NCBI RefSeq assembly: GCF_006345805.1
Contig: NC_043007.1
Coordinates: 62,682,001-62,746,000, forward strand
Length of the DNA stretch: 64,000 nt
Direction: 5' to 3'
Source of the DNA: Octopus sinensis
Taxonomy: Eukaryota
Shown here: positions 1 through 28,638 of the stretch, piece after piece
Layout: every line of letters begins with the position of its first letter
Position numbering within the stretch: the stretch's first letter is position 1
The notes under the pieces: model-generated
What the model saw: only the letters and a program-made list of their open reading frames with translations
Told to the model about the DNA's origin: nothing
Database searches by the model: none
Position numbers and translations under genes: made by a program

Positions 1-1620
1 TGTTGGGTAGGAATTCCAATATTTTGACACTCAAGGTGAGGAAGGGAGTTAGACCTTGGAGAGAAGCATGCTGCATGGATTTGATATGCAAAGAGCTTGC
101 TCTAAGAAGCAGAGAACATTGAAGTAACTGTAAGTAGATAGAAAAAACATAGTGAGGATACACATTTGTGAACAAGAGCCTCAAGTGCATTGGTGGCAAT
201 GTAAATAAGCTGGGTGGGTTTTTTAGGATGTTGTATCTGTGAAGAGATGTGGCTTAGTGGTTAGGGTGTCAGGTTTACAGTTATAAAGTCATGAGTTTGA
301 TTCCTGGATTGAGCAGTGTATTATATCCTTGGGCAAGACGCATCATTTCATGTTACACCTGTCTAATCAGCTGAAAATCGTTATCATCCTAGTGCTGGTG
401 CAATTCTCTCTCCCTCTAGCTATTATAGTCTCAAGGTTCTGCTGGGCCAAGAGTGGGAGAGATGAGAAGATGTCTACATCTCTTCATGACAACATAAGCA
501 CCTAAAACAATCAATGAAAATATGGTAGTCTTACTCATTTGCAAGTAATGGCTAAGCTTAAGCTTAAGTGTATGTATGTGTAGTAGCAGCACCATCATAG
601 GTGTGGGAGCAGTAATCTATCATGGACCTTGCTAAAGTTTTATAGAGTCAGTAGCTGTTGAGATCTGAAGTTTTCCTGGGTCTGAAGAGAAAGATTTGTC
701 TTTGGGAGGCAATTTTTTCTAAGATTTTGAATGTAGGATCATCAGTTTAAGATCTATAGCAACTTTGGGATTTTTAGTTGTGTTATTAATGATCAGGTAA
801 TAGTGGATGAAGATCATACAAGATCGTTTCCTTGTGTGAAGTTACAACATCTTTATGCTGTATAAGGAAACAAAAACTAAAAATATTATCTCCTGGAATG
901 TTTTCATAGCTTCTCTTCAAAAAGTTAGCATTGTTTTGGTATGATGAGGACACTTGTTTGAAAAAGATTAGGAAGGTGTGAAGGGTATTAATATCTGCAT
1001 AGGAGTAGGTGTCAATGGAAGTACTGGTAGTAGATTGTTGATGTACAGAAGGAAGACTATGGGGTCCATTCCAACAGATGCAGTGTGCGTTAGAGTGAAT
1101 AACATTAGTTCATACTATAGTGCTGTAAACTGAAAGGAATCTTCTACTCCAAGAGTCTAGAGATGTATGGATCCCATAGGTTGGCAGCTTAAATAGGATA
1201 CTAACATGCCAAACAAATTGAAAGGCTTTGCTGATGCTAAGCACAATGACATTGCTTTTATCAAACTTCTCAATGACAAAGAACTATCCTTTGATCTTAT
1301 GTGTTGATGTCGGGACCTGAAAACCTTTTCCTGTCATTCACACATAAGATCAACTGATGGATAGTAAAGAAAAGAAAGAAAGAAAATTAAAAACAATGGA
1401 AATGATATCAAATATCCTATATGGAAACAGGACTTCAGATTTGGATCTACAAAAGTCTTTTTGATGGTCACTGAGGAGAGCAATACAAGATGTTAGATCA
1501 GAGGATTGTTAATGACTTTTCCCATCTTTCAAAAGGGATGGGGAAATGCAAGTGATAGTCAACAAGACCAGAGAGGTGGCTCTTCTTTGAAATGAGACAA
1601 ACTGTAACATTTTCCAATAT
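1..1620 (-). mobile_element. Highly degraded non-LTR retrotransposon (CR1/L2/Jockey-group) RT and 3' region, interrupted by a SINE
   Basis: Minus strand ~1070-975 reads PIVFLLYINNLL..TSIDTYSYADINTLH (degenerate RT motifs including YADD). A 'WNS' 3' motif lies at ~10-30 and a VSSLCF-like segment at ~140-170. Many stops and frameshifts; upper boundary approximate. Confidence 0.6.
246..390 (+). mobile_element. Old tRNA-derived SINE head
   Basis: A-box gtggcttagtggtt, degenerate B-box gagtttgattcc, then tccttgggcaagac. The same head occurs at 12435, 15390(-), 36785 and 47575. Confidence 0.65.
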
Positions 1621-1664
1621 GTATATGTAAAGTCAAGATAGCAGGCTCACAGAATCATTACTGT

Positions 1665-1845
1665 GCCAGGCGAAATGCTTAATAGCATTTCATGTCTCTA
1701 CGTTCTAAGATCAAATGCCACTGAGGTCAACTTTGCCTTTCATCAGGGTTAATAAAATAAGTACCAGTTGAGTATTGGGGGTCAATGTAATCAACTTAGT
1801 CCCTCCCTTGAAATTGCTAGCCTTGTGTCAAAATTTGAAACCAAT
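1665..1845 (+). mobile_element. tRNA-derived SINE with Meta-domain-like core (most abundant family in window)
   Basis: Core gaggtcaactttgcctttcatc...ataaaataagtaccag. Other copies at ~2890-3101(+), 7033-7510(+), 7929-8130(+), 13944-14158(-), 14461-14686(-), 17925-18548(-, three), 19417-19630(-), 28677-28792(-), 33270-33480(-), 45050-45200(-), 54605-54800(-), 60670-61075(-, two). Confidence 0.85.
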
Positions 1846-2889
1846 ATGTATTGGTAAAGTATCAAGCAAAAACAAATTCCTTGTAGTCTTTAGTTACATC
1901 CAGCTTGACTTTACTCTTCCACTTCGAGGGTAGGGGCAGTAAAATCAATGCCAGATACAGTACTGGGGTCAATATAATTGATTAAAAACTTTGAAGGTAA
2001 TGCTCTAGTATGATTGCAATGACTGAATAACCTGTGCAAGAGTAAAATAAAGAATTGTTGAATAAATGAAATAAGCTAAAAATAACTGAAAATATCCCAA
2101 AATAGCAGAATTGAAGGTGGAACAACAGCATTGAAGGGATATGTAATGGGAGAATTCTAATCCATTTTTGCAGAATAGAATAATTCAGCACAACTAATAA
2201 TGCCATCAGTTTCTACAACATTGTATGTTTAATGGAGATGAGTGCCTGGCCCAAGGCTTATTCTTCTGAAGTAGGGTGTTTTTCACACAAGAACATCTAC
2301 ATTCAGAATTGTGAACCATTAAAACATGTTTGCATCAAAACATTATACCACCCTGAGATATCTATTTAGAAATAGATGAATTTAGTCATATCAATGACAG
2401 AATACGAATAACTAGTCTGGTTATTTGTTGTTTCAATCATGCTTTTTTAAAGGAGGAATTGTGTTATTCTAAAAGAGGAGAGGATGGTCTGTTTTGTAGT
2501 TGCAGAATGTGTAAAGTTTGATAATGGATAAATCAGACCGAACAAGGAGAGAAACATGTGAAATAATTGATTGAATCAAATTTGATAGACTCTGGGAAAA
2601 AATGCTGAAAAAATGCCCAGAAGAACTAAAGCTTAATCAATATAAGAATGAAACATTGCAGTGTACAACATTTAACAGCTTAGATATTAAAAAAGAAAAT
2701 GAGATGAAAATGCTATGGATATTACTAAATCTTGTTCCACCATCCATGCATAAGATCAAAGAGTAATAGAAACTAAAGAATAATAATAGAAATGATATCA
2801 GATGTGCATAAGATTGTGCAAAAGGAATGATCCATCCTTTACTGTCTGGAAATAAGAGTGCTTGCTGGCATTTTTTTATTTTATATATA

Positions 2890-3101
2890 AGGCAGTAAGC
2901 TGGCAGAAGTGTTAGTATAAGAAAAAATACCTTGCAATATTTGTTCTGGTTCTTTACATTCTGTGTTCAAATCCTGCAGAGATCAGCTTTGACTTTTGTC
3001 TTTATGTGGACCAATAAAATAAAGTAACAGTCAAGCACTAAGGTGAATGTCAACAACTAACCCCTCAAAATTGCTGGCCTTGTGCCTAAATTAGAAACCA
3101 A
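2890..3101 (+). mobile_element. Meta-type SINE, near full length
   Basis: Head aaggcagtaagctggcagaagtgttag, B-box gttcaaatcc, tail ggccttgtgcctaaattagaaacc. Confidence 0.75.
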
Positions 3102-3361
3102 ATCATTATTTATTACCAGCATGTAAAGCACAATAGTCTTTGCTAGCTGTTATAGCTTGAATAAAAAAATACTGATAGACAAAGCAAGATGAAAAATAGG
3201 GGACACATTGGAAGACATACTATTGTTCTTTTAGTACCAAATATATGACTGTAAAGAGAAAGCAATATTTAATTTTAGAAGATAAGTCAGTTATTATCAG
3301 TAACCAATGTTTGAAATAGATAAAATCTGGAGATGTAAGTATGAATATAAGGATGTATATA

Positions 3362-3434
3362 TGGATGGATGGACAGATGGGCGGGTGGACGGACGGATGG
3401 ATGGATGGATGGATGGATGGATGGATGGATGGAT
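3362..3434. repeat. (GGAT)n/(GGAC)n tetranucleotide microsatellite
   Basis: Directly visible. Confidence 0.95.
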
Positions 3435-3444
3435 ACATGTGTAT

Positions 3445-3827
3445 ATTAGGTGAAGGTATGCTTCTATGGAAAGAAGTTTGCTCCCCAATCACATAGTTTT
3501 GGGTTCAGTCCCACTGCATAGCACCTTGTGTAAGTGTCTTCTACAATAGCCCTTGGTCAACCAAAACCCTGTGAGTGTGTGGGTGTGTGTGTGTGTGTGA
3601 GTATGTGTGTTTTGCTGTTACATGATAGTTGTAAGCAAATGTCACTGTCGTGCAAGTGGTGTTCATTCTAAATCTTCTGCAGAAAATATCTGGTCCTGGG
3701 GAAATATTACCTTACTTCAAAACAGGAAAGGGTTGGTGTCAGGAAAGGCATCCAGTTGTAGAAAATCCACCTGAACACATTCTGTCCAACCCATGCAAGC
3801 ATGAAAAAGTGGGCATTAAAATGACAG

Positions 3828-3857
<30 letters not shown>
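3445..3857 (+). mobile_element. tRNA-headed SINE (CORE-like block) with RTE-type 3' tail ending in (ATG)n
   Basis: Head gggttcagtcccactgcatagcaccttg, a (TG)n linker, then the tail ggaaaggcatccagttgtagaaaa...aacccatgcaagcatg shared with RTE 3' ends. Similar copy at 25800-26240. Confidence 0.75.
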
Positions 3858-3858
<1 letters not shown>

Positions 3859-3860
3859 AT

Positions 3861-3902
<42 letters not shown>

Positions 3903-4094
3903 CATTATATAAAAGAGCTTAGTAAAATAAATTACTTTGCCGCATACTGAACTCATTAGAAATAGTAGCTAAAAAAACTTTTTTAAAAACTATTTCTAAT
4001 ACTTAAAGAAAACCTCTCTCATATAGTGTTTGCTCAATTCAACTCACGAAAGTATGGGGGTAAAGACATTAAAAAATCAAATGCAAAGGTTATT

Positions 4095-4146
4095 TGAGAA
4101 CGTACGTTTCAAGATTAGTCAACTCGACATTTCTATCATCAGCTCA
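4095..4146 (-). ncRNA. Minimal type I hammerhead ribozyme motif
   Basis: Reverse complement: TGAG CTGATGA t-AGA..GTC gagtt GAC..TCT-t GAAAC gtac GTT CTCA. Stem I TGAG/CTCA, palindromic stem III loop GTAC. Confidence 0.8.
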
Positions 4147-4838
4147 GAACTCCTTGGTTTGGATTTGAAAACACTGAAAGTGGGAGCATACCCTTTCGGC
4201 TTCTTATCGCTTCTGAAGATCTGCTCGAAACTAACAGTGTCAGCAAACTCAAATATGCAAGCGAAGAATTTCTGCTCTCCCCTTTCCACCAGCGTGGGTT
4301 AAAATCAGTAAACACTATGCTTTTTTCGGTAAAATCCGAGGCATTAAATAGAGAGAGATGAATTTCAACAATTGAGGGTAAAATTAATTAATTATTAATC
4401 AATTTCACCAAGTATTCAGTATGCAAAGGGACCATTTAAGGCGAATTCAAATTATTACATTATATAAAAGGGCTTAGTAAAATAAATTACTTTGCCGCAT
4501 ACTGAACTCATTAGAAATAGTAGCTAAAAAAACTTTGAATTCGCCTTAAATGGTCCCTTTGCATACTGAATACTTGGTGAAATTGATTAATAATTAATTA
4601 ATTTTACCCTCAATTGTTGAAATTCATCTCTCTCTATTTAATGCCTCGGATTTTACCGAAAAAAGCATAGTGTTTACTGATTTTAACCCACGCTGGTGGA
4701 AAGGGGAGAGCAGAAATTCTTCGCTTGCATATTTGAGTTTGCTGACACTGTTAGTTTCGAGCAGATCTTCAGAAGCGATAAGAAGCCGAAAGGGTATGCT
4801 CCCACTTTCAGTGTTTTCAAATCCAAACCAAGGAGTTC

Positions 4839-4890
4839 TGAGCTGATGATAGAAATGTCGAGTTGACTAATCTTGAAACGTATGTTCTCA
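4839..4890 (+). ncRNA. Minimal type I hammerhead ribozyme motif (second arm)
   Basis: TGAG CTGATGA(4843-4849)...GAAAC(4875-4879) gtat GTT CTCA. Loop GTAT is a one-base variant of GTAC. Confidence 0.78.
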
Positions 4891-5719
4891 AATAACCTTT
4901 GCATTTGATTTTTTAATGTCTTTACCCCCATACTTTCGTGAGTTGAATTGAGCAAACACTATATGAGAGAGGTTTTCTTTAAGTATTAGAAATAGTTTTT
5001 AAAAAAGTTTTTTTAGCTACTATTTCTAATGAGTTCAGTATGCGGCAAAGTAATTTATTTTACTAAGCCCTTTTATATAATGTAATAATTTGAATTCGCC
5101 TTAAATGGTCCCTTTGCATACTGAATACTTGGTGAAATTGATTAATAATTAATTAATTTTACCCTCAATTGTTGAAATTATATATATATATATATATGGA
5201 ATAAGCAGGACAAGAGGAGATACATTGGATAGAGTCACTGAGGAGGTCACAGAATGTGTGATGAGAGAACTTTGACAGACATATAAGCTAAAAATAATAT
5301 GAATAAAAACTAAAGTGAGGATCAAATAATGCATGTGTTTAATTGGTAAAAAGACAGAGAAAAAATTACCAGTACAAAGTATAACAACACACACACACAC
5401 ACACATGCTCACATACATACACAGTTACTTGTGATTATTTGCTAACGTACAAGATTTATAGAAGGTGGAGGACAATTGTGCAAGATAATAAATGTCCCAA
5501 TATCACACATCACCAAACTTCCACATCTGCTTAAATACTTGCTCTGGTGTGATGAGCGAAAGTGGAACAATATTGAATTGGTAACATATTGGAATGTCCA
5601 AACAGGCTGAAATCTCTTTTTTACTTAATTTTTTTTTTCTTTTATGTATTTCAAAAAATAAACTAACTCTTTATAACCTGCTATGTTTTACTTTACTTCA
5701 AGCTTTTGAACAGTAATTG

Positions 5720-5721
<2 letters not shown>

Positions 5722-5784
<63 letters not shown>

Positions 5785-5790
5785 GCTGCT
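5722..5790. repeat. (ACT)n microsatellite
   Basis: Directly visible. Confidence 0.95.
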
Positions 5791-6139
5791 TACCTCTCAC
5801 AGTCTGGATAGGTGGCACTGCGAGCTAATTTAGGTGTGTTTACACAATTTGTCTACAGTGAGAAATTTTTTTCATGGCATAATATGGTGAATGGTTTGCT
5901 TATGAGTTTGGACATGTCACAAGCATATTTGAACTGGTAATAAGAACATTGCAGTATAATTTCTGTAAAAACTAGATCCATAACTGGCCTAATCTCTTCC
6001 TTTATAGGTTTAACAACTACTTGATTCTTGGGTGGTAAACTTAATACATTACCTGGTTTAATACTACCATCTGGTTCTTGGTGCCCTTTGCGGAATTTAT
6101 CCTGCTGCATGCATTCAAAGCAGGTTTTTGGTCTAAGGA

Positions 6140-7020
6140 GCGCCCATGCTGATGAGCTTGCTCTAATAGCTGAGTCACCAACAGAACTAGAGATGAGGTT
6201 TAGTGTGTGGAAGCAAGGTCTGAAATCAAAGGGCCTTAAGGTTAACCTAGTGGATAGAGAACCCATGCAATGTACCCAGTGTAAGCTGTGAACACACAAA
6301 AGGTGCAGCAATATTAAAAGAAAGTTAACCAGGAAGGTAGTTTTTGTGTGTGGCAGATGCACAGGGGCAATAAACACTGAAGATGTACAGAAAACAGATT
6401 TCATCACATACCAGGGGGAAAAAACTAGAAGTAGTTGATAGCTTCTGCTGCCTAGGCAATAAAGTCTGTAATGGGGTGGTTACTTTGAGATTGTAGCAGC
6501 TAGAATAAGAATAGCCTGGGCAAAATTCAGCTGGCAAAGTTCTGCTGGCAACTAAGGGCCTCTTGCACAGGATGAAAGGTAGACTGTATGATGCATGGGC
6601 CATGACTGCTGAGGGCATGTGTAGGCTTGAAAGAAATGAAGCTAGGATGATCTGCTGGATGTGTAATGTCAGTGTGCATACACAACAGAGAGTGAGCACC
6701 CTGAGAGAAAAGTTAGACATAAGAAGCATCAAATGTGTTGTGCAAGAGAGACGACTGCACTGGTATGGTCATATGTTACGTATGGTTGAGGACAGCTGTG
6801 TGAGGAAGTGCCACACCCTAACTGTGGAAGGAAGCTGTGGAAAAGATAGACCCAGGAAAACATGGGATGAGGTGGTGAAGCATGATCTTCAAATGTTGGG
6901 CCTCACAGAGGCAATGACAGGAGACTAAAACATTTGGAGATATACTGTGCTTGAGAAAACTCAGCAACTAAAGTGAGATCGCAGCCATGACCGATGCCAG
7001 TGTTGCATGTCTGGCCCATT
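6140..7020 (+). mobile_element. RTE-clade LINE, 5'-truncated, degraded (RT end to C-terminus)
   Basis: HADELALIAES (YADD-like) and RRLHWYGHMLRM...GSCGKDRPRKTWDEVVKHDL, a typical RTE C-terminus; frameshifted. Confidence 0.9.
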
Positions 7021-7079
7021 TAAAAGTACTGCTTGGCTGAATAGTTAGCATGCCAGGTGAAATGCTTAGCAGTATTTCA

Positions 7080-7151
7080 TGGACATATGGCATAGTGGTT
7101 AAGAGTGTAGGCTACTAACCCCAAGATTCTGAGTTCAATTCCAGGCAGTGA

Positions 7152-7214
<63 letters not shown>

Positions 7215-7408
7215 CAACAACAACATCATAAAAAAATACCTTAGGAATGAGAACACAAGTTCGAAATTTACCCAAGACACCTGATGAAGGCTGGAGGGTA
7301 TATCAGCCGAAACGTGTTAACAACAAACAAGATGAGGACAAATATCTGTCAAATGTAAATAATGTAAATAATGTACATAATTCCTCATCTCTTAAATATA
7401 GAACTGTT
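7080..7408 (+). mobile_element. tRNA-headed SINE with internal (AAT)n and hammerhead-like motif, inserted in a Meta-type SINE
   Basis: A-box tggcatagtggttaag and B-box gagttcaattcc; ACAC CTGATGA a GGCTG..CAGCC GAAAC GTGT at 7277-7317. An 8 bp TSD gtatttca lies at 7072-7079 and 7409-7416. Confidence 0.8.
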
Positions 7409-7569
7409 GTATTTCACTTGTTGCTACATTTTGAGTTCAAATTCTGCCAAGGTCGACTTTGCCTTTCAGGGTCGATAAACTAAGTACCAGTGAAACACTG
7501 AGGTTGATTGAGGCCTTTTGCCTCCAGTATAAAGGATTATTATTATTGTTGTTGTTGTTGTTGTTGTTA

Positions 7570-7917
7570 TGTGAGAGAATAGTCCATGCCATCAAAGTGA
7601 CACTAGATGCAAATATACGAAGCTGAATATACCCATCATGACTACTCATGTGATAAGGGTACACTAAGCATATGCATCCATATGCACTTGACATGATAAC
7701 TTCATATTAAGATAAACAATGCATGATTTTGTAGGTGGGGCCCTGTTAGAATTTTCTTTTGGTTAAGTAGCCCATCATGTTCAAAAGGTCCCTGAATAAA
7801 GGTTGTTTAAGGATGTTGAACAAAACAGAGGCAAATTATTCAACATGCTCAACTGGTTATGGTCAAACAACTGACAAACAAATCTGTGGTATTGAGCAGA
7901 ATATTTGCTGTAGCCCT
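7570..7917 (-). mobile_element. ~550 bp non-coding element family embedded in (TAA)n; internally deleted older copy
   Basis: Homologous to 8254-8450, 18857-19357 and 57511-58070; flanked by (TTA)/(TTG) repeats. Confidence 0.8.
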
Positions 7918-8253
7918 ATTATTATTATTGGCAGATTCATTAGCATGTCAGGCGAAATGCTTAGCGGAATTTTATTTCTCATTATGTTCTGAGTTCAAAT
8001 TCTGCTAAGGTCAACTTTACCTTTCATCCATTTGGGGTTGATAAAATGAGTATCAGTGAAACACTGGAGTCAATGTAATCGGTTCATCCTCTCCCCCGCA
8101 AATTTCAGGCCTTGTGCCTATAGTAGAAAGAATCATCATCGTCGTTGTCATCATCGTCGTCATCGTCATCATCATCATCATCATCATCCTCATCATCATC
8201 ATCATCATCATCATTATTATTATTATTATTATCATTATTATTATTATTATTAT

Positions 8254-8450
8254 TGAGTGAGAGAGCAGTTCATGCCATCAAAGTGACACTGGGGTAAAAT
8301 ATACGAAGCCCAATATACCCATCATGACTACCCGTCTGATAAAGGTACACCAGGCACATGCATCACAACCATATGTGCGCGACATGGTGATCTCATATCA
8401 AGATAAACAGCACATGACCTTGCAGGTGGGGCCCAGTTAGAATTTTCTTC
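8254..8450 (-). mobile_element. Same (TAA)n-embedded family, young truncated copy
   Basis: Near-identical to the reverse complement of ~19160-19357; lies between (TTA)n and (TCA)n/(TTA)n tracts. Confidence 0.85.
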
Positions 8451-8460
8451 ATCATCATCA

Positions 8461-8521
<61 letters not shown>

Positions 8522-9168
8522 ACTAATAATATTGTCAATCCAACTGGAAAATAGCCAGAGAATGTCTTAGAAAATATTTTTGTTGTGTCTATTGTTCTGT
8601 ATCCAAATTGCTAAAATACCAGTTATTAAATTTAAAAAAAAAATCAATGAATTTGCTGTGGTTTAAGTCTGTATGTAACCTTTTATCAAGAGCAATAGTA
8701 GAGTAGCTTGGGATGGTAGAATGATGAATTGGGCCACGGATGGACACACACACACACATGCACACGCATATGCACACACACACACACACACACTCATGCA
8801 CATACACACACAAACACATATACACGTAATACACGTATATAAAACATGCCCTGTCTTTCATTTACTGTCATGGTTATTTGTCTGGTTGCTGTGTCAGATG
8901 GAGGGTGGCATTAAATGCCAACCTTAAAAGTGCAATTTCTGCCATTTTAATATGTAGCAGCAGCAGCAGTAGTAGTAGTAGTAGTAGTTGTTGTTGTTTT
9001 TGTTTACGTTGATGAGAAACTTGTTGCTGATGATGATATAATCTTTCTGTGTTATTGCTCTGATACTGATACTGTCATTGGTTGTTACTGGTGTTTTTTT
9101 GCCAAGTATTGGTGTCTTTTTGCCAAGTATTGGTGTCTTTTTTCCCTTGTATTTTAGTTGGATGCCAA

Positions 9169-9735
9169 TGTGGGCTTATGACATAGATACCTTGACAATA
9201 TAGTATATAACTGACATAAATAAAAAGAAATCGCTTACCAGGCCAGGTCCTTGCTAAGAACGTACCTTTGGATCTACACTGCATACAAAAACAAAAAGCG
9301 ATCTTTTTCTTTTTATAGTTTTATCATAGCTTAACCTCTGCTCAACTCTGATTCAGTGATCCTATAAACAAAAACAGACAAGTTTCAACCATTCTGTATT
9401 TTACCTTTCCCACACATAGTGCATCTAGAATTATATTATCTAATATTTTTGGAGGAAGTTCTTGTGGGGTTATGACATAGATTCCTTCACAATATAGTAT
9501 ATTACTGACATAAATAAAAAGAAAACGCTGACCAGACCCTTGCCAAGAACTTACCTTGGTTTCTACAGCTCTGTAGTTAAAAAGACACTGATTTTTTTCT
9601 TTTTATGGTTTTGTCATAGCTTAGCCTCAGCTTAGCTCTGATTCAGCAGATCTATATACAAAGAGAGACAAGCCATAACCATCCTGTATTTTTCTTTTCC
9701 CACACATTGGGCAAATAAGATTATAGTATATAATG
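9169..9735. repeat. Diverged tandem duplication, period ~294 bp
   Basis: tgtggg(c/g)ttatgacatagat..caatatagtatat..actgacataaataaaaagaaa occurs at ~9169 and ~9463, colinear to tttcccacacat. Confidence 0.85.
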
Positions 9736-10264
9736 TGACCTTTTTTGAGATAGTAGGGCTGCGTATTTCCAACAGAATAGTGAGACTGTGATTCATGGCA
9801 AGGGACATCTATTTGGGTTGTACATTTTTAAAAGTATAGCTTAAGGTTTTAGAAATTCCATAATAATAGTTGAACTCCTCTATGGCTGGTTGAGGAAGAA
9901 AGAAGGTGGTAGATGTAAGGTGAGCAGCCCTGAACTATCAAATTTTCTGCATTACCAATGAAATGCTAACAAGAGGACATATGAAACTGGTCCTAGTATC
10001 TGGAGGTAGTTTACAGAAATGGCATATAAAGCAATGGAGTGAAATCTGGAAGGAAGCTCATTTGTAGAATAATCTTCTCTCAGCATGGAAAAACAAGGAG
10101 AAGGTCCATAGAGGCTAAAGCACTGGCAGGCAGTTACATCTGGGGACAAGTATGATAAATATAATTCTTCGAGGTGGCACCCCTGCATGGTCACAGTCTA
10201 ATGACTGAAACAAGTAAATGATAAAAGATAAAGACGTTATTCGCAACTTTAATATACACAAATT

Positions 10265-11293
10265 ATCATCATCATCATCATCATCATTTAATATCTGTTG
10301 TCAATGCTGGCATGGGTTGGATGTTGTGACCAGGGTTGGCAAGCTGGAAGGCTGCACCAGACTTCAGTCTGTTTTGAAATGGTTTCTACAGCTGGATGCC
10401 CTTCCTAATGCCAACCACTCTGAGAGTGTAATGAGTGCTTTTATGTGCCACCAGCATGGGTGCCATATGCATGATATTGGTATCTGCCACGATTGCGGTT
10501 TTACTTGGCTTGATGGGTCTTCTTCTCAGCATGGCATAATGCCAAATGGACTTGATCATTGCCTCTGTGAGGCTCAACACTTGAAGCACAGCTCAATGCC
10601 AAATTGTCTTGGTCCATGCCTCCATGAGGCCCAACACTTGAAAGGCACTTTATGTGCCATTAGCATGGGTGCTATTTGTATGACACCAGTATCTGCCAGA
10701 CTGCAATTTTACTTAGCTTGATGGGTCTTTTTCTCAAGCACAACATAATGCCAAAAGATCAAGCAGGGTTATCTACCTAAAGGGACTTGTGGTTTGTCTG
10801 CCTTTGTAGTTCCTAAGACTTTGGTTTTTGCTAGGTTAACTCTATGGCCCTTTGATTCTAAACTTTGCTTCCATACCTGGAACTTCTTTTCTAGTTCTGG
10901 AAGTGATTCAGCTATAAGAACTAGGTCATCAGCATAGAGGAGCTCCCAGGGGCAGCCTGTCTTGAATTCCTCTGTTATTACCTGGAGGACTATGATGAAC
11001 AAGAAGGGGTTTAAGACTAATCCTTGGTGAACCTGTACCCTGAATTCTTAGCTGTACTCATTACCATTTCTCACCTTACTGGTAGCATCTCTGTACATGG
11101 CTTGTACAGCTCTCACCAGCCACTCATCTATCCCTAGTTTCTGCATTGACCACCAGATAAGGGATTGGAGGACTCTGTCAAAAGCTTTCTCCAAGTCAAC
11201 AAAAGCTAAGTACAGAGGTTTATCTTTGGTTATGTATTTCTCCTGCAGCTGCCTTACCAGAAATATAGCATCAGTGGTGCTTCTCCCTGGCAC
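10265..11293 (-). mobile_element. RTE-clade LINE fragment (RT core) joined to its repeat-containing 3' UTR and (ATG)n tail
   Basis: MPGRSTTDAIFLVRQLQEKY...AFVDLEKAFDRV and PWELLYADDLVLIAES. The 3' UTR ~10290-10760 matches the tail after the RTE ORF at 62750-63020. Confidence 0.9.
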
Positions 11294-11594
11294 AAGTCAA
11301 GTAGAAATTTTCAACCATTTTTACTAAATCATAAAACTTTAAAACAAATTTTTTCTTCAATTATTTTTTCAAGATGTAGAAGCAAGTTTATAATTTCATC
11401 CCCTGTGTACTAGAGTCAAAAATAACTGTTGCAGTAACATGTCATTGGAGAGAAATTTGGCTGGTAAGTCTAGTAGGTTGAGTAACTGCAGAGAGGCTTC
11501 TTTGGTAGTTCACTTTTTAGGCATTTTTTTTTTTACTATTGTTTGTAAATGTGTTCATGACATTGTTGATAATGTTATTGCTAATTATTGTTAG

Positions 11595-11700
11595 GCACAG
11601 GCATCATTGTGTGGCAAGAAGTTTGCTTCTCAACCATATAGTTCTAGATTCAGTCCCAGCTTTATGAGTAGATTTGATAGATGGAACTAAAAGAAGTCTG

Positions 11701-11744
<44 letters not shown>

Positions 11745-11783
11745 TCATACGATGGACTTCTTTTAGTTTCTGTCTACTAAATC

Positions 11784-11827
<44 letters not shown>

Positions 11828-12066
11828 TATATACATATATATGTGTGTATGTGTCTTTGTGTCTGAGTTTGTCTCCCACCACCATTTGACAACTTGCATT
11901 GGTTTGTTTACATCCCCATAACTTAACGGTTTGGCAAAAAGTGACTGACAGAATAAGTATCAGGTTTAAAAAAAATTAATCCTGGCGATTGATTCATTCA
12001 ATAAAAAGTTCTTCAAAGTGGTACCTCATCATAGCCACAGCCTAATGACTGAAACAGATAAAAGAT
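11595..12066 (+). mobile_element. tRNA-headed modular SINE with (TA)n linker
   Basis: Head ggcacaggcatcattgtgtggcaagaag, tail ttgacaac..catccccataacttaacgg..taatgactgaaac. Family copies at 31937, 46457, 50795 and 51950. Confidence 0.8.
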
Positions 12067-12969
12067 ATTTTATGTTGATACTTTTATTGTTGATATGTTA
12101 AGGTGTTTTTGAGTTTTAATATATTTACCATTATTTGAGATTGAATCATTATTAAGAAAATGCATATTGTATAGCTTATTGTATAGTAAAAAACTCTAAA
12201 AACAACATGGCCAGACTTTCATACTATATACTATATACCATATCTAGATTGCTGTACTACTTACCAAATAACATGTGCAGACTGTCATACTACATGCTAA
12301 ATAATATACCCATACTGTCATACTGTACACCATACAATATGTGAAGACTGTCATATGGCATACCATACAAGAGGTATGTACAACATTACATACACTATTA
12401 TACTACACCCTATACGCCATGAGTTCATATGTGAAGGCACATGGCTTGATGGTTGGGGTAATCAGCTCAAAATTGTAAGGCTGTGAGCTCAATTCCTGGC
12501 AGTGTGTCGTGTCTTTGAGCAAGACATTTTATTTCATGCTGCTCCAGTCCACTCAGCTGGCAAAAATGAGTAGTACCTGTAAATTCAAAGGGCCAGCTTT
12601 TTCGCATTCTGTGCCATGCTGAATCTCCCAGAGTGGAGGAGTGGATTCTTCAGATTCCTGGTTGACTCCTAGAACTGAGGATAAGGTGATAACCCAGTGT
12701 TGCCCTATGAATTGCAGCTTGTTTTTGTTGTTGCTGTTTATTGCTTAACCTTCCCAGAACTTCTCGAAAGAAAACCTTCAAATAACCAATTTAAAATCTT
12801 TGGTCATCTTTTATAAGCACAGGATTTAAATTGCAAATGTTAAAGGGATGTAACTATGTTATAATTTCTAACATTGGCATGAGAGCTTTTTGGCTCATTG
12901 CACTACCAATTCTGCTGTCCACTGCCCTAAAATAGTGAAAATAATAATAAAATAAAAAAATAAACAGAT

Positions 12970-14425
12970 GCCAATGGTAACACCAACAAGTCATTGACAA
13001 CAATAACTACAGTTTCAGCAATGCCATTTTCATCAATAACAGCAGAAATTGCATCAACATATGTATCAGCAACAAAAGCTGTAGCAGCTGCACAAATCAC
13101 AATATCAACAATAACAACTACAGCAATAGCATCAATAACATGATCAACAGTAGCTGCAACAACTACAGCAATGTCTATATATTAGCAACAACAACTGTAG
13201 CAACTACTCAATGTCAATAACAACAACAGAAGCAGAGATTGCAGCAAACTGCACCATTGTTAATAACAATATCAACAACTACAGCAACTACTATGATGTT
13301 AATATCAACAACTGCAGCAACTGTGCTAGTGCCAATATCAAAAACAGTTGCAGCAGCAACTACTGTCATGTTAATTTCAGGAACAACAGCTGCAGCAACT
13401 GCACCAATGTCAACCACAACAATTGCACCAATAATAATCAGCAGGGATTGCATCTATGTCAAGCTCAACAGCAACAACATGAATGTGAGTATCAACAACA
13501 ATTGCAGTAGTGTCAGTAACAACAACAACAATAACTGCAGTAATGTCAATATAAAGAGCAGCTGCAGCAATATCAATACTGGCAACAACAACAACTGTAG
13601 CAATGTCAATATTGAAAACAACAACTTCAGGAATGTCAATATTGACAACAACAACAACAACTGCAATAATGTCAATATGGACGATAACAACTGCAGAAAT
13701 GTCAATCTTGACAACCACAACAGCAACTGCAACAATGTCAATGTTGACAACAATAACAACTGCAGCAATGTCGATATTGACAACAACAACTGCAGCAATA
13801 TCAATATTGACGACAACAACAACAACTGCAGTAATGTCAATATTGTCAACAACAACAACTGCAGTAATGTCAATATTGTCAACAACAACAATTGCAGCAA
13901 TGTCAATATTGGCAACCACAACAACTGCAGCAATTTCAATATTGGTTTCAAATTTTGGCACAAGGCCAGCAATTCAAGGGAAGGGGTGTAAGTCAATTAT
14001 ATTGATCCCAGTGCATAACTGGTACTTATTTTATCAACCTCAAAAAGATGAAAGGCAAAGTCAACGTTGGGGAAATCTGAACTCAGAACGTAAAGACAGA
14101 TGAAATGCTACTAAGCATTACACCCGGCGTGCTGATGATTCTGCCAGCTCACTCCCTTCAGCAATGTCAGTATTGACAAGAGCAACAATTGCAGTAATGT
14201 CAATAGGAGCAACAGATGCAACAGCTATAGCAACATCAATGTTAACAACAACATATACCAACAGCTGCAATGTCAGTGCCCACAACAACAACAGCAGCCA
14301 TTGCACCAATGTCTTCAACAACAATTGCAACAATAATATTCAACACTAAGAGCACAATGTCAACAGCAACAGCTACACTAACCGCAGCAACAGTACCATT
14401 ATCGATAACAATAGCAATAGCTGTA
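12970..14425. repeat. (AAC)-derived minisatellite, unit ~aactgcagcaatgtcaatattgac(aac)n, interrupted by a SINE
   Basis: Regular 30-36 bp units at 13530-13943, degenerate flanks, and a Meta-type SINE at 13944-14158. Confidence 0.9.
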
Positions 14426-15094
14426 ACAAAAAAAGGCAATGTTCTCACACATGAAATATATTTCTTTATTATCCACAAGGAGCTAAACACAGGGGGGACA
14501 AACAAGGACAGAAAAATGGATTAAGTCGATTACATCAACCCCAGTGCGTAACTGGTACTTAATTTATCGACCCCGAAAGGATGAAAGGCAAAGTCAACCT
14601 CAGCGGAATTGGAACTCAGAACGTAATGGCAGGCAAAATACCGCTAAGCATTTTGCTTAGCATGCTAACGTTTCTGCCAGCTCACTGATACATGAAATAA
14701 ACTCCAAAATAAGAAATAATAACCAAATTCCTTCTAATCATACCATATTGTTTCAGAAATAAAGAAGTAAATTGAAAATCTAGTTATAGATATAAAAAAT
14801 ACATGATGGTCATGGCTGGAAAGCCTTCAGACATAGGTACACTCAGTCTAGGCTGCCTGGAGCAAAGCAACAAGACCATAAAGGAATATTTACAAGCCTT
14901 CTCCTGAAGCTGCTAGAAATAGCAGTTAAATCCATCTTTAAGAAAGGATGTTTTGGATAATATAGTCCTACATTGGATATTACTGAAAAATGATGGGATA
15001 TTCACAGAAAGGACACTTTTGGCCATAAATCTGCTTAATTGGAGCAGACATGTCATTAAACAACAGTAACAGCAACAATCATTAACTAGCACTC

Positions 15095-15393
15095 TATCAG
15101 TTATATTGAGTGTTCCAATCAATGGAACAGCCTGCTCGTGAAATTAACATGCAAGTGGCTAATCACTCCACAAACACATGTACCCATAACATAGTTCTCA
15201 GGGGTAGTCAACATGACAGACTGTGACAAGGCTGGCCCTTTGAATTACAGGTACTACTCATTTTTGCTAGCTGAGTGGACTGGAACAACACGAAATAAAA
15301 TGTCTTGCTCAAGGATACAACATGCCACTAGAAATCAAACTCGTGACCTTATGATCATGAGCTGAATAACCTAACCACTAAGCCATGTGCCTT
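15095..15393 (-). mobile_element. tRNA-derived SINE with Deu/Nin-like central domain
   Basis: tRNA-like head (rc of aaccactaagccatgtgcctt) and conserved block gtggctaatcactccacaaacacatgtaccc. Related pieces at 12435-12630, 19700-19840 and 52510-52670. Domain name assigned from memory. Confidence 0.65.
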
Positions 15394-15732
15394 AACAACA
15401 GTAACAATAACTGAAACAGTACCACTAACAACAACAACAACTGCAGTAAAAACAGTAGCACCAGCAACAACTACACCAGTAACATCAGTGGCAGTTAACA
15501 ACTGTAGCACCAATAGCAGAAGTAACAACAATAATAGTAAAAATAGAAACAGTAATAACACCACCACCAACAAAAGCAGTTACAACATAGCTTTAGCAAC
15601 AGACACAACAGTAGCTCTAGCTACAACAACTCCAGTAGCAACAACAACACCAACAACAGTAGTACCAGCAACCATAACAGCTCCGACTACAACAACAACA
15701 CTAACAACAACAGCAACAACAACAACAATATT
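15394..15732. repeat. Degenerate (AAC/AGC/AGT) trinucleotide low-complexity tract
   Basis: Directly visible; source of the Thr/Val-rich ORFs. Confidence 0.85.
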
Positions 15733-16149
15733 AACATTTCCGGTAGTATTCTGCTGCTTTCCCATTGTGATTACTGGAATGTTTTCTTAAGACTTTAGAC
15801 TTAAATACATGGCTACTTCTTTGAAAGCAGTTTTATGTTGAAGGTGCTTAGTTGCTTGTTTGAACAGGGTGAATGACTACATAGAATCTCTCTCCACTGA
15901 CATCCTCTGCATGGCTTTACTGTACAAGATAATTCCAGAACAGGCTAGAGCATGGCAACATACCCAGGATGCCAAACCTATGATCCATTCCCTAAGTCAA
16001 ACATCTTTATGCAATCAGTCTTCTCAAACAAAATTTGAAAGGATTATTCAATAATAGCCACTTCAGTAGCAAGGAAATACTGATGAAGATGATGATGATG
16101 ATTGCTTTTTTCTGGTCCAAGATGATACATTGTGGGATTACATAAAAGA

Positions 16150-17760
16150 GCATGTAAAAATGAGAATAACAGTACCAAAAAAATTTTAAGCATAATTCTT
16201 CAAAAGTGGGGAAGCCTCCAAGGGCTACTTATAGGAGTCCCATCAAGTTATGGTCACTCTGACCTTTAAGGCAAGTGCATTTTCCCTGTTTTCCTTCAAT
16301 CCACAGATGTATGCCAAAAGCAGGCTCATTTACTCAAACAAATTTGCTGGGTGGTAGTACTTCCTTCTCTGCCCCTTTACTTCTTTTTTTTTTTCCAGGT
16401 AAAACTTGAGAAAGTTGATAAAGACTTAGCCAAAGGGGAAAGGGTCTTTGCTAAAGCCACCAAACAGATAGGCACTGCCTGTCCTTCCCAGCCAAAGGAA
16501 GGTGAAGGGATGAAACTCACAACGAAGTCAGCTGATAGCAGGATATGTCCCACATGTTGCAGTAAGTATTCAACATAATTTTATGAGGTCGCAATATCTG
16601 GGCACTGGACCAGATGTGCAGAACAAACTTGTCACTTTGCACACATCTTCTATAAGCATTTTCATGCTTGTAGAATTTATCTCAAAGTGGCAATGTTCCC
16701 TGGTATCACTGTCAGGTCAGAACTTACCTTGAATTTATCCCTGGGCCTCAACCTGAAAGTCCTCTACCACATACTAGCAAGTTGCTTTTTGTCAATGATC
16801 TGAATTTCTTCAAGAATGTCATTGCTTTTACCTGCCATCAACCCTCTGTAGAATGCCAACATTAACCACATTGCTCAACTGGTAGAGGGCTGTGAGCACT
16901 TGATGACATTCCAGATTCCAAATGTTTAGCTCTCAGCTAACACCTTGGCCAAAATCTTATAATTTACATCTAGCAAAGTCATAGGTCAAAATTTGATATG
17001 ATCTCACTTGTTTGGATCCTTTCTTAGCAGTACTACCACTCGTCAACTCACAGAACTAAGGATTCTCCTATTCTGCTGCTAGTTCTGGTAGACAACTGCC
17101 AAGAAATCTGCCAAGATACGTACCAAGAGGTCTCCAAACAAATCTGGCAAGTAAAGCTTGTAGAGCAGACCATCTAAACTAGGTGATTTGTCCATTGTGC
17201 AGTCAACTGTCACTTCCTGTATTTCCACAGTTGTTATTGACCTTCCACAACACTTCACCTCTCTTGCTAAGAGTTGAGGCAAGCTATGAAGGTAGACACT
17301 GAGATTCATTCTGTGACCCAGCTCACTACTTCTCCTGAACAGCCAAGAGAAGTGCTGCTGCAAAACCATATACATCTTATGAAGTTTGAGAAGCATATTG
17401 CCTTCAGGGTCTGTCAAAGAACAAATTGTGGTTTTGTTGCCTCATTGCATCTCAGCCATTTCATCCCATGAAACAGCTGTCATCTTTTCATGTCTTAGAA
17501 CATGCACCTTTACTTGAACACTGCAGCTTTCATGCTTTGCACTGAAGAATTGGTCAAGGGTTAATTTTGCCATTAGCACATGTGTTGTGATTCTTTCCTC
17601 AACACCTCTTCTAAGTTTCTAACTAGATCTCCCTTTTAATCTAGTTTTCTGTATTGCTACTTTCTTATTTAATATATATCAATTCTACTTTAATTGGCCT
17701 TTTCAGAGCACTATTTGTTGTTCATGACAGTCATAGCAATATCTCAAAGTCCCCTTACAC
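16150..17760 (-). mobile_element. Degraded L1/Tx1-clade LINE ORF2
   Basis: DKSPSLDGLLYKLY (KSPGxDG motif) and VVLLRKDPNK...PMTLLDVNYKILAKVLA (RPITLL..YKILAK motif) at ~16940-17040. Many disruptions; ends approximate. Confidence 0.75.
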
Positions 17761-18639
17761 CAGTGAGTCATGTGTGTTATATATTATATATTATCTAAAG
17801 GTAGATGTTCTCCAATAGCGAAAAACAGCAGTGATCAGATATTCACATTTGAATCTGCTAGAACATATTTTGAATAAATAGGCCACTATTTCTAAATAGG
17901 CCTCTTTCTAAATCGGCCTCTATTACAGGCCTGAAATTTGTGGACAGGGGAACAGCTGATTAGATCAACTGGTACTTATTTTATTGACCCCAAAAGGATG
18001 AAAGGCAATGCCAATCTCTGTGGAATTTGAACTCAGACTGCCAAGCATTGTGCCCAGCATGCTAACGATTCTACCAGCACACTGCCTTCACCACCTTCAT
18101 GATAATAATTTTTTTCTATTATAATACAAGCCAGCAGTTTCATTTTTGGTGTGGAGTTAGTTGATAATATCAACACTAATACTTGACTAGTACTTTATTT
18201 ATCAACCCTAAAAGAATGAAAGGTAAAATTGACCTTGGCAGGATTTTACCTTAGTGCATAAAGAGCTGGAAGAAATGCTGCTAAAATTTTTGTCCAATAT
18301 GCTCGCAATTCTACCTTTGATAAGAATAATAATCTTTCCTATTATAGGCACAAGGCCTGAAATTTTTCAGGAGGGAGCTTGTAAATTATGTTGACCCAAG
18401 TATTTGATTGGTACTTATTTCATTGACTCCATAAGGATGGAAAGCAAAGCCTATCTTGGTTGAATTTGAACTGAACATGTAAAGACGGACAAAATGCTAC
18501 TAACCATCTTGTCCATTGTTCTAAAAATTCTGCCAGCTTGTAGCCTTCATAACAACAACAACTACAATAATAATAATATCATCTTAAGATCACACTATCA
18601 TCTTATCATCAAATTACTATTAAAACAAACTTTTAATTT

Positions 18640-18802
18640 TCTTATGTTTTGACAGACACTCTCTAGAACAATACTCTGTGCAAAACCAAAAACATGGTAC
18701 CCTAGTTGTAATGCCAACTTGAACTTCTAACTTGTTGCCTCTTGAGATCTCTTGGTGAGACTAGGAGACAATTTGTACAAATACAAAGTAAAAGCCAAAC
18801 AT

Positions 18803-18803
<1 letters not shown>
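18640..18803 (+). mobile_element. Short 3'-end fragment of a (TAA)n-associated retroelement
   Basis: Homologous to 58180-58332 (gaacttc.aac.tgttg.ctcttgag..ggtgagact.ggag.caa.ttgtaca); both run into (TAA)n. Confidence 0.65.
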
Positions 18804-18856
<53 letters not shown>

Positions 18857-19357
18857 GAAGTGTTATCATGTACATTGTTTTGTCTTGGTATAAAAGATGG
18901 GCTACAGCAAATATTCTGCTCAATACCACAGATTTGCTTGTCAGTTGTTTGACCATAACCAGTTGAGCATGTCCCTTAGTGGCTGACGATATGTGCATCT
19001 CTGATCACGAGCAGAAGTAGTGGGGGAGCAACATAGCCATGTGTTGAGAGGGATTCTTTGGGGTTTGAATAATTCACCTCTGGAAACATGGGTGGTTCTT
19101 TCAACATCCTTAAACAACCCTTATTCAGGGACCTTTTGAGTGGGATGGGCTACTCAACCTGAAGAAAATTCTAACTGGGCCCCACCTGCAAGGTCATGTG
19201 CTGTTTATCTTGATATGAGATCACCATGTCGCGCACATATGGTTGTGATGCATGTGCCTGGTGTACCTTTATCAGACGGGTAGTCATGATGGGTATATTG
19301 GGCTTCGTATATTTTACCTCAGTGTCACTTTGATGGCATGAACTGCTCTCTCACTCA
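18857..19357 (+). mobile_element. (TAA)n-embedded ~550 bp non-coding element, young copy
   Basis: Flanked on both sides by (TAA)n, ends ctctctcactc-aataataa, CpGs retained. Confidence 0.85.
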
Positions 19358-21595
19358 ATAATAATAATAATAATAGTAATAATAATAATAATAGTAATAA
19401 TAGTAATAATAATAATGGTTTAAAATTTAAGCACAAGGCCAGTAATTTCAGGGCAGTGGATTAGTCAATTACAGTGACACCAGTGTTCAACTGGTACTTA
19501 TTTTATCGACTTCGAAAGGATGAAAGGCAAAGTCAACCTTGGAAGAATTTGAACACAGAACGTAAAGACCAATGAAATGCCGCTAAGCAATTTGCTCAGT
19601 GCGTTAATGATTCTCCCAGCTTGTCACCTTAATAATATTAATAATAGTTAATAAATGGATCACTGCCAGTTTCAATGATAGGTAATCAGTAGTTTAGTCA
19701 ACTGAACTATCTGCTCATTGAATTAGCCTATAAGTATCTGAGTTTTCCACAGACATGTTTAACCTCAATGTAATGTTCAAGCAGGATTAACATGGCACAC
19801 TGCATGCCTGACAAGGCCAAACCTTTGAATTACAAGTAGAATCCATCTGATAGGCTTTCACACCGTTTTTGTCTTCCCACTTCCTTTCACAAGGCTAGGA
19901 TTGATCTGAGTATACAGTAAAAAATACTTGCCCAAGATACCATGCAGTGAGATTGAACCTACAACCCCATGATTGGGAACCAAACTTCTTAACCATTCAG
20001 TCATACTAAGTCCACTTCTTCCCTTGCTGTTTTTCTTTCTTTTTTTTTTTCTTTTTCATAAAGAAACATGAAAAGAAAGAGAACTAGTGATCTGAGCTGA
20101 ATGCTAGCAGTAGAAGAATTTCTGATAAAAACACCCAAGGACCAGGTAGCAATATTAAACTAAATGATGTGTTAGGGGTTACTATTGAATACTTTAACAG
20201 ACCTTTAACATATCCATGTGCATTATCCCTTTTGGCATGTAAACACTACAGTACAATTCCTACTTCATAATTAAAGCGATTAGCACTTAAATTGGGGAAT
20301 CAACTGAAGCACAATAAGTAACTGAATTGTTCCTCAGTATATCACTAGCACTTGTTATACCCATAATTAGTTTTAATCAGTAATACACCCCAATTTCTGA
20401 ACCAGAGTGAGAGAAAGATCATAACATAAACTTATACATTGTTTTATAAAATAAATCTCAAGTGTTCAAGTGATACGATGATATTCTTATGTAATCAAAT
20501 ATGGTATAATCAATATAGTGTAATCAATATGATGTAATCAATATGGTAAGAATATATCCTCAACAAACCAAATCTTTGGCCTGATTTTGAATCCCAATAT
20601 AAATATCTCATTTGACTAATATTGTAAATCTATAACTCAAGCCATCATCTCTCCAAGACTGTCTTGCTCTTGTCACACTTTATAATGTCAAATTCTTAAG
20701 TGGTGCTCTAATAACCTAATAAGAGTTGCTGGATTTTTTTTCTCACGCTATATTTACAAATAGTGCAAAGTACATGATATAAATATAAATAATGACTTAG
20801 ATTCTTATACTAAAAGTATTTCATTAGCTATGATGCATATAGATCTGAGAAATGTAAGAAACCAAAACAGATACTGTAAATATTTTGTCTGGTGTTCATA
20901 TTATCTCTACAAAAAACCAAAACCACAAGATAAATAAAAATGAGAAAACAAAATTGAAAAATGGTAACTCAAAATCAAAAAAGAAAGGAAAAAAAAACCT
21001 CCAAAATAAATCAGTAAACAGGATACAGTTCTTGAATGTTCTCTAGTCAAATTTAAAATAAACCTTATCTTAAATCTGTATTTATAAACTTCTCATGTTG
21101 ACCTACTTCTTTCTTATTTGTTTTGTTTTATATCTTTTCTGAAGAGTGAAACCTGTTGTCAAAAGCAGGATGTCAGACCAATATGGTAATGGAAAATTGG
21201 TTCCAGTTCTTCATGAATTTCTCTTTTATTAGTGGGTAATTCTTTCCTAACTTCTGTAGTGATTCTTCTCTCATCAGTTACTTATTGATACTTTATGGAA
21301 GAAGAGTCGAACTCATGTAAAGAAATTAATTATGTTACTGTGAGTTTGATAAATGCACAAATTTTAAAGTATTTAAATGAATTATTTTTATACCATCACA
21401 CACATACATATACATACTTATACATACACATGGTGGTTTATTCTTCAATCAACTTGTATATACATATACATAATCACATATACACATACATGTTTATTCC
21501 TCTTTTACACTAATCCACAAATATGAACATACTCTCACACATATACATCATGATGGCTTCTCTTTGACACCAGCCCACATATAGAACACATACAT

Positions 21596-28300: not shown

Positions 28301-28329
28301 CACTTATATATATATATATATATATATAT

Positions 28330-28638
28330 ACGAGAAAGAAGCAACAAGAATGGATTAGTTTTTAGTACAATTGTTTCATACAAAGACAGGCTTTATTAAA
28401 AGTTGCAAATATTGCAGCAGATAAAAGTGTCCCGTATCTGCTGCAATATTTGCAACTTTTAATAAAGCCTGTCTTTGTATGAAACAATTGTACTAAAAAC
28501 TAATCCATTCTTGTTGCTTCTTTCTCGTTTATAATCACCCCACATTACTGTATGGTTAACACCATATAGTTTTCTGGTGCATCTAAGTTAAGTACCGCAT
28601 TCAAGTAAATTCATTAGAATTGACTTGAATCTTAATTG

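Follow-up and report, generated by a model that had tools for sequence, protein, structure and literature searches.

How does a near-perfect palindrome with a hammerhead ribozyme in each arm come to stand between two (TA)n tracts of the Octopus sinensis genome, and from what template was it copied? We addressed this question for a fold-back within a stretch of 64,000 nucleotides (contig NC_043007.1 of assembly GCF_006345805.1, positions 62,682,001 to 62,746,000; hereafter the window). The locus belongs to a dispersed non-coding hammerhead family, which is a non-LTR retrozyme with an insertion anatomy as in Penelope-like elements (PLEs). Its informative feature, overlooked in a first-pass annotation of this DNA, is that the 3′ ends of the arms fall on two fixed sites of the unit, one per arm.

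Anatomy of the fold-back

Arm 1 (3899–4536, reverse strand, 638 nt) spans unit positions 471–555 and then 1–553 of the next unit, with its 3′ end at 3899. Arm 2 (4534–5179, forward strand, 646 nt) contains one unit (4534–5088) followed by positions 1–91, with its 3′ end at 5179; position 1 of the unit corresponds to 4534. The 5′ ends of the arms are joined through an overlapping TTT (4534–4536), and the outer ends abut (TA)n target tracts at 3858–3898 and 5180–5197. We designated the 3′ end of arm 1 as site A and that of arm 2 as site B. The 93 nt from site A to site B (5087–5179, forward strand), hereafter the tail, are present only at the end of arm 2. Arm 1 extends 85 nt further in the 5′ direction and arm 2 extends 93 nt further in the 3′ direction, and a template of only 731 nt, spanning one hammerhead site, is required for the whole structure.

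Exactly two substitutions separate the arms (4102 versus 4883, and 3916 versus 4471/5069). The arms of 638 and 646 bp, the two substitutions, the TTT join and the (TA)n flanks were all confirmed as first described. The inter-arm divergence of 0.28% agrees with the initial impression of a very young insertion, but it is nothing unusual, as 42 loci whose arms overlap have a median of approximately 0.66%. The A arms of two separate loci, the window (3916) and L026, have an identical C>T change 12–17 nt away from their site-A ends.

Relative to the family, both arms lack ATAATT after position 91 (4624/4625 on the forward strand in arm 2, and 4360/4361 in arm 1). This deletion was found at only one of 116 scanned loci; the deletion form occurs twice, both times at the window locus, and the common form occurs 131 times at 68 loci. 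The monomer length of 555 bp proposed earlier is therefore valid for the window arms but not for the family unit, which is approximately 561 bp. Further short near-perfect palindromes are located at 28325–28533 and 34482–34686 of the window, with self-matches of 95% and 91%, respectively.

Hammerhead ribozymes

A motif search located the pattern TGAG-CTGATGA-25 nt-GAAA-CGTAYG-TT-CTCA once in each window arm. The motif and its conservation confirm that each arm has a minimal type I hammerhead. In arm 2 (4839–4890, forward strand), stem I is formed by TGAG/CTCA, the core consists of CTGATGA (4843–4849) and GAAA (4875–4878), and loop III is CGTATG. The hammerhead consensus numbering predicts a cut after 4886, which is unit position 353. 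The hammerhead of arm 1 (4095–4146, reverse strand) has the palindromic loop III of the family, CGTACG, and its predicted cut is between 4099 and 4098. The palindromic loop initially attributed to both arms is thus present in arm 1, but in arm 2 it is broken by C>T at 4883. No Rfam hammerhead family matched window positions 1–20000 at E ≤ 1, and two sub-threshold Rfam matches (mir-2513 and CRISPR-DR50), which fall on hairpins, were discarded.

Sister families retain the hammerhead with a covarying stem I and differing self-complementary loops, and one of them has a U3-A8 core, a functional variant of the hammerhead core. Hammerheads outside these families were also encountered. At L115 (4964–5040), the 5′ end of a single A arm adjoins a different same-strand hammerhead with a U3-A8 core. 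Others, with palindromic loop III and a stem II of 50–65 nt, lie in a tandem of approximately 472 nt and in inverted pairs at L088 (6696–8577), L114, L145, L181 and L184. Many more hammerhead families of the palindromic-loop-III kind are present in the genome.

A dispersed non-coding family

The hammerhead with the palindromic loop has 2,059 exact matches in the O. sinensis genome, and a 26-mer near site A at the 3′ ends has 7,312; reversed-pattern controls gave no match to either. The first 100 listed matches to the 26-mer represent 47 loci across 21.5 Mb. If that ratio holds, there are approximately 3,400 loci genome-wide, subfamilies included. We analyzed 116 distinct loci, consisting of the best 39 hits, 44 loci that matched the hammerhead pattern and were taken in order on contig C1, and 33 further loci selected by the 26-mer. 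The best-hit and contig C1 sets are biased to long copies, and the 47-locus set is unbiased. Duplicate loci (L002, L015, L019, L024, L029, L031–L060, L285, L300, L304 and L307), arms with less than 82% identity (less than 88% in a 78%-identical subfamily), and columns near indels or within 455–484 were left out.

The unit has a GC content of 34%. Twenty-seven of 71 arms in the unbiased set are longer than one unit and 10 are longer than two. Arrays reach 8 units, with a type I hammerhead in each of the tandem units, and 105 cut-to-cut units were obtained (overlapping loci included). Six-frame translation of the circularized unit revealed no long reading frame, and neither a tRNA (ARAGORN) nor a B-box match was found in it. 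Such a dispersed, high-copy distribution is characteristic of retrozymes. We rejected a plant-type LTR retrozyme, which has a type III hammerhead, two LTRs and a 4-bp duplication, because the family instead has type I hammerheads and a tandem and inverted layout.

The sister families are 60–92% identical where compared. Their units are 545–600 nt long; the hammerhead is kept, as is its distance from the start structure, a structured region common to them approximately 120 nt downstream. Sister non-coding loci include L122, L128 and L146 (564 nt), L191 and L188 (566 nt), L188 at 829–2168 (587 nt), L209/L251 and L341 (approximately 599 nt), L218 and L117 (approximately 644 nt), L326–L333, and L331. 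The motif around the start sites is common to these families, with 6,856 further exact matches, and their hammerhead, in one family with a U3-A8 core, lies 110–130 nt upstream of it. At L209 (4528–9001) with L251 (1–2178), an arm of the family passes, with no TA spacer, into a sister array of approximately 10 units; this joint, compatible with template switching or to later insertion with deletion, was left uncounted.

Two fixed 3′ ends, one of each per fold-back

Tabulating the copy ends and permutations, as the first-pass annotation had suggested, revealed that the 3′ ends are at either site A (546–560, mostly after ...TATAAT) or site B (90/91), while the 5′ ends vary. The arms of the window do end at different permutation points, as noted at the outset, but their 3′ points are two sites fixed throughout the family. 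A TA-rich flank is present at 176 of 185 arm ends. The 114 elements comprise 71 fold-backs and 43 single arms (26 B and 17 A). The A+B combination accounts for 67 of the 71 two-arm fold-backs. A single one is B+B and the remaining three have an untyped end, so that the typed fold-backs are A+B in 67 of 68 cases (binomial p = 5e-19 versus independent choice). The 3′ ends face outward in all 71, and inward in none. Both left-right orders occur (35 BA and 32 AB), and an overlap of 1–15 nt between the arms was observed in 39 of the 67 A+B fold-backs. The 78%-identical subfamily (27 loci) has 14 A+B fold-backs, no A+A or B+B, 5 complex loci and 8 single-arm loci. In an autonomous family of the same genome, with a 784-aa RT/GIY-YIG frame, the pattern is A+B in 5 of 5 cases, with a tail of 33–36 nt.

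The lengths of the two arms show no significant correlation (rho = 0.19, p = 0.12). Target-site duplications were found in only 7 of 113 elements compared with 1–5 in shuffled controls, and are weakly resolvable; direct repeats of 16–17 nt are present on both sides of L023, L114 and L079. The family has the fixed 3′ ends, optional tail, variable 5′ truncation and head-to-head inversion of PLE-mobilized copies, together with an AT-rich or microsatellite target and a short or absent duplication. The window locus is thus an ordinary family member, a PLE-type non-LTR retrozyme insertion, and not a one-off.

These counts also bear on whether the palindrome could be an assembly artefact. Its own junction was absent among the arm-to-arm joints listed from sequencing runs, but many joints of the family occur in contigs of an independent run, the two arms differ in their ends and flanks, and 71 fold-backs have junctions of their own. 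We consider an artefact extremely improbable.

What the two arms copied

The units of a locus share their haplotype: 6,409 of 6,492 informative cells are concordant and 83 are discordant, compared with approximately 2,067 expected. In 16 of the 67 A+B fold-backs, including the window, neither arm lies within the other in any register, and neither can therefore be a snap-back copy of the other. This geometry counts against a scheme in which one cDNA primes on itself and copies itself, after which the endonuclease trims the second end. Self-priming has been put forward from the palindromic junctions of PLE inversions (PMC3846280). It would be permitted by the geometry in the other 51 fold-backs and is compatible with the clustering of 5′ junctions at an internal hairpin near 446–465. 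It is, however, impossible in the 16 and contradicted at the window, and it does not predict that A+B occurs in both left-right orders. At L062, moreover, the A arm reaches approximately 555 nt beyond the B arm, yet an in-register variant is shared (one site). We regard self-priming as an unlikely origin of the fold-backs.

Two priming events on the same template are indicated by further comparisons. Both arms end near the same template point (a B arm longer than the A arm by 75–110 nt) in 9 of the 67 fold-backs, against a permutation mean of 2.0, and none of 20,000 permutations was as high. Equal arm lengths, which a simultaneous stop would give, were observed in 6 of 67 (3.3 expected, p = 0.11) and are unsupported. 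Eleven variants are carried by two units of a fold-back; for seven of them, the two units belong to different arms and have the same register when counted from the 3′ ends (1.6 expected). The clearest case is L096, where four substitutions absent from 85–97 other loci are matched B0=A0 and B1=A1; the register holds when counted from the 3′ ends but not when counted from the center. This register excludes a monomer circle as well as gene conversion within a hairpin at L096, although it is compatible with self-priming because the A arm is inside the B arm. The template of L096 was one heterogeneous multimer that both arms copied in register. In both arms of L096, unit 1 is mutated in the core (GAAA to GAAT).

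Reading of a heterogeneous multimer in order is weakly indicated at L062, L064, L104 and L341, with one in-register event each, that of L341 being ambiguous. The in-register signal depends on a few loci, as most have singleton differences only: pooled mismatches are 0.55% versus 0.89%, and the per-locus Wilcoxon test gives p = 0.30 (of 25 loci, 14 lower and 10 higher). No in-register excess was detected in the 78% subfamily. The original idea of a circular or concatemeric RNA copied twice is upheld in that more than one unit was copied, and copied twice, but it fails for a monomer circle at L096. At L106, an 8-unit arm has variants recurring with a period of 3–4 units, which might reflect a multimer circle or later duplication.

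Template topology and the hammerhead cut

It is possible, although somewhat doubtful, that the template at the window and most loci was a closed monomer circle, formed by hammerhead cleavage and ligation and read round repeatedly. This alternative changes only the topology of the template and leaves two-site priming unaffected. The hammerhead site was passed 240 times compared with 19 stops overall (62 and 10, respectively, in the unbiased set). Twenty-six private variants are fixed throughout the covering units of their locus, the internal divergence of an 8-unit arm is 0.09%, and a sister array of approximately 10 units has no shared substitutions across eight intervals. Near-identical arrays with fixed private variants suggest a frequent bottleneck of a single unit, as a circle would give; however, homogeneous arrays could equally arise from young source arrays, template jumping or duplication at the DNA level. 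The circular fold of the hammerhead strand is more stable than shuffled sequences (z = −3.4 to −7.1, 12 shuffles each), and circles are formed by other animal retrozymes (PMC7229834). On the other hand, distinct units were read in order at L096, and weakly so at the four loci named above, and the 731-nt template of the window suffices without a circle. Judging from the sequence, circularity is plausible, but the window copy does not need it.

The distribution of 5′ ends also argues against templates that were exclusively circular. They are enriched just past the cut site, with 18 of 182 at 351–370 compared with 6.6 expected under a uniform hazard (p = 2e-4), and 10 of 71 in the unbiased set. 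This enrichment fits linear cleaved templates or stalling of the RT at stem I. Because a similar peak of 5′ ends is present at the 446–465 hairpin, structure alone can produce such stops. The family unit was not found in any sequencing run recorded as RNA; contigs of three runs guessed to be RNA and of one untyped run cover most of the unit, but they are uninformative on strand, level, ends and circularity.

Predicted RNA structure around sites A and B

An alignment of 14 sister sequences predicts a conserved RNA structure around both 3′-end sites (4984–5163, forward strand). One hairpin is predicted at 4984–5031 and another at 5131–5163, immediately before site B. A predicted helix of 5033–5046 with 5116–5126/5067–5069 encloses site A in an AU-rich multiloop, and both sites fall in unpaired AU-rich stretches. 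The predicted structure is more stable than shuffled sequences (z = −6.9, 0 of 200 as stable). Pairing is kept in 97.9% of 574 cells in the 14 sequences, and both-side changes occur in 5 of 41 pairs. This covariation is only suggestive support for the prediction, as it comes from the same alignment of related sequences from which the structure was derived.

Proposed mechanism

The dispersed (TA)n copies, the 3′ ends fixed at A and B with one of each per fold-back, the arms longer than a unit and the conserved hammerhead make it probable that the family is a retrozyme, likely mobilized in trans by a PLE, and that both ends of one (TA)n cut primed at sites A and B of an RNA longer than one unit. 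Under this mechanism, tandem copies would be transcribed into multimers, which the hammerhead, probably acting as a dimer via the palindromic loop III, would cut partially to give multimers, linear monomers and possibly circles. The PLE protein, probably also a dimer, would bind the three-hairpin structure, and both strands of the (TA)n target would be cut. Priming at A and B would occur through AU microhomology of a few bases. Both cDNAs would extend toward the 5′ end of the RNA and halt at variable points, and their free ends would be connected through microhomology or with a few additional bases; after fill-in, the product would be a head-to-head element with the 3′ ends outward. Where a single cDNA survived, a single arm would result.

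For an Anolis PLE in vitro, cutting and extension of both strands, two internal start sites on the RNA and a predicted dimer have been described (PMC11167929). Frangieh et al. detected no strand difference in the start site in vitro, and their main text does not report pairing within single insertions (PMC11167929).

More tentatively, PLE retrotransposition in general could be an asymmetric two-site reaction of a dimeric RT that is exploited by a non-coding hammerhead clade. The two RT subunits might then obligatorily start at different sites, one per cut DNA end. By the same conjecture, the clade would comprise units of 545–644 nt in more than 10,000 copies with one shared three-hairpin start signal, and it might cycle between genomic multimers and circular monomers.

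Comparison with known systems

In L1 twin priming, a single RNA is likewise primed by both ends of the target cut, and joining of the two cDNAs produces an inversion; the second primer acts at upstream positions that vary, and there is no overlap between the arms. In the present family, by contrast, the second site is fixed at a distance of approximately 93 nt, and each arm duplicates the other.

EN+ PLEs (Penelope, Poseidon PAc, Neptune and Naiad) resemble the family in having 5′-truncated tandem and inverted copies with a one-ended tail, AT-rich or microsatellite targets, a minimal hammerhead with a palindromic loop III, and two internal RT start sites that bound the tail. The family differs in lacking an ORF and in having a tail of approximately 90–100 nt, compared with 30–40 nt in these PLEs. 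Published accounts term the tail "optional" or "often only at one end"; in the present family there is one per fold-back in 67 of 68 cases. The presence of the PLE tail at one end only has been reported with its mechanism left open (PMC3846280, PMC8557442), self-priming being favored in the former, and the PLE activity seen in vitro needed no cleavage (PMC11167929). Chlamys elements such as MRC1 are non-autonomous PLE parasites, as our family would be, and likewise occur in multiple head-to-tail copies at microsatellites (PMC8557442). MRC1-type elements, however, have a 3′ end similar to that of their autonomous partner, and the Chlamys clade lacks canonical hammerheads (PMC8557442). For our family, no partner was found among the PLEs sampled, and the hammerhead is conserved.

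Animal non-LTR retrozymes, like the family, are non-coding tandem units with a type I hammerhead and low GC content, ranging from monomers to multimers, and a PLE has likewise been proposed to mobilize them. The unit length is inside the 51–972 bp range of Li, Clavereau and Pollet (2026, preprint), and is larger than the RNAs of 170–400 nt reported by Cervera and de la Peña (2020; PMC7229834). Circular RNA has been demonstrated for the latter, whereas our family is known from DNA. What is resolved here is the anatomy of the insertions, namely the fixed A and B 3′ ends, the fold-backs and the (TA)n targets. The words "inverted", "target site" and "microsatellite" do not appear in the main text of PMC7229834, and the main text of the 2026 preprint gives no description of ends. 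Minimal dimeric hammerheads were described, and circular templates proposed, in 2014 (PMC4209133).

The class of element, the one-sided tail and both-strand extension are thus known (PMC4209133, PMC11167929, PMC3846280, PMC8557442, PMC2377424, PMC9977147). In the literature searched, open-access rather than subscription papers, we found no published two-priming or A+B rule, no precedent for a counted one-A-one-B rule with same-template evidence, and no mention of the family for cephalopods. The origin of the tandem and inverted structures and one-sided tails of PLEs has been described as undefined (PMC8557442, PMC2377424). Retrozymes have so far been linked to PLEs by co-occurrence and pLTR similarity. 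As the family is short and young, with more than a single unit in an arm, one can read from every insertion which unit of the template went into which arm. The family thereby provides a rule that can be counted (an A end, a B end and one template in common) and a predicted RNA structure of 180 nt that can be tested with purified PLE protein, and it opens the origin of PLE inversions to direct testing. A further implication is that the genome has acquired thousands of near-perfect DNA palindromes measuring up to several kb.

Relation to autonomous PLEs

Mobilization by a PLE is likely, judging from the anatomy that the family has in common with autonomous PLEs of the same genome. None of the 116 loci, with flanks of 1.5–4.5 kb, has a family unit contiguous with a PLE RT/GIY-YIG ORF, and no PLE protein match was found within window positions 1–12000. 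The reported absence of RT and GIY-YIG sequence at the locus is therefore confirmed in that region, the sampled copies are not ordinary attached pLTRs, and the first assignment to a non-coding retrozyme-like family with PLE-type insertion marks is supported. A comparison of 57 GIY-YIG/RT and 30 RT loci with the family units (blastn), together with a profile search, yielded only more non-coding sisters, and no PLE family in this sample, a small part of 5,029 GIY-YIG and 12,443 RT candidates, shares the 3′ structure.

The same results weigh against the view that the units are debris left by the pLTRs of an autonomous PLE and amplified locally through unequal crossover. Xenopus retrozymes are related to pLTRs and local amplification has been proposed (bioRxiv 10.64898/2026.07.22.740005), the quasi-periodic array of L106 suggests duplication at the DNA level, and approximately 116 of roughly 3,400 loci were sampled here. 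No unit, however, enters a PLE ORF, and where a PLE match is nearby (12 of 116 loci), a TA run always lies between the match and the element. Nor does the unit show coding similarity to eight PLE frames (no tblastn match at E < 0.26). Debris is further disfavored by the constancy of unit length, hammerhead and spacing to the start structure in the sister families, and by the multi-unit arms on both sides of dispersed fold-backs. We consider this origin quite improbable, and prefer a non-coding retrozyme mobilized in trans.

Several candidate connections to coding sequence were examined and set aside. At L076, the ORF between two arms belongs to a distinct PLE, which has inverted pLTRs itself and is bounded by TA tracts; the ORF at L092 is an unrelated fragment. 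At L271 (4136–7100), a sister-family fold-back continues near site A directly into a 5′-truncated PLE RT/GIY-YIG copy, which could result from template switching or from later insertion with deletion. At least two young PLE families with intact RT/GIY-YIG frames of 781–784 aa and (TA)n targets are present at L214, L216–L219 and L256–L259. They have an additional open frame upstream of the RT/GIY-YIG frame, and the first of them has a U3-A8 hammerhead and the A+B fold-back pattern.
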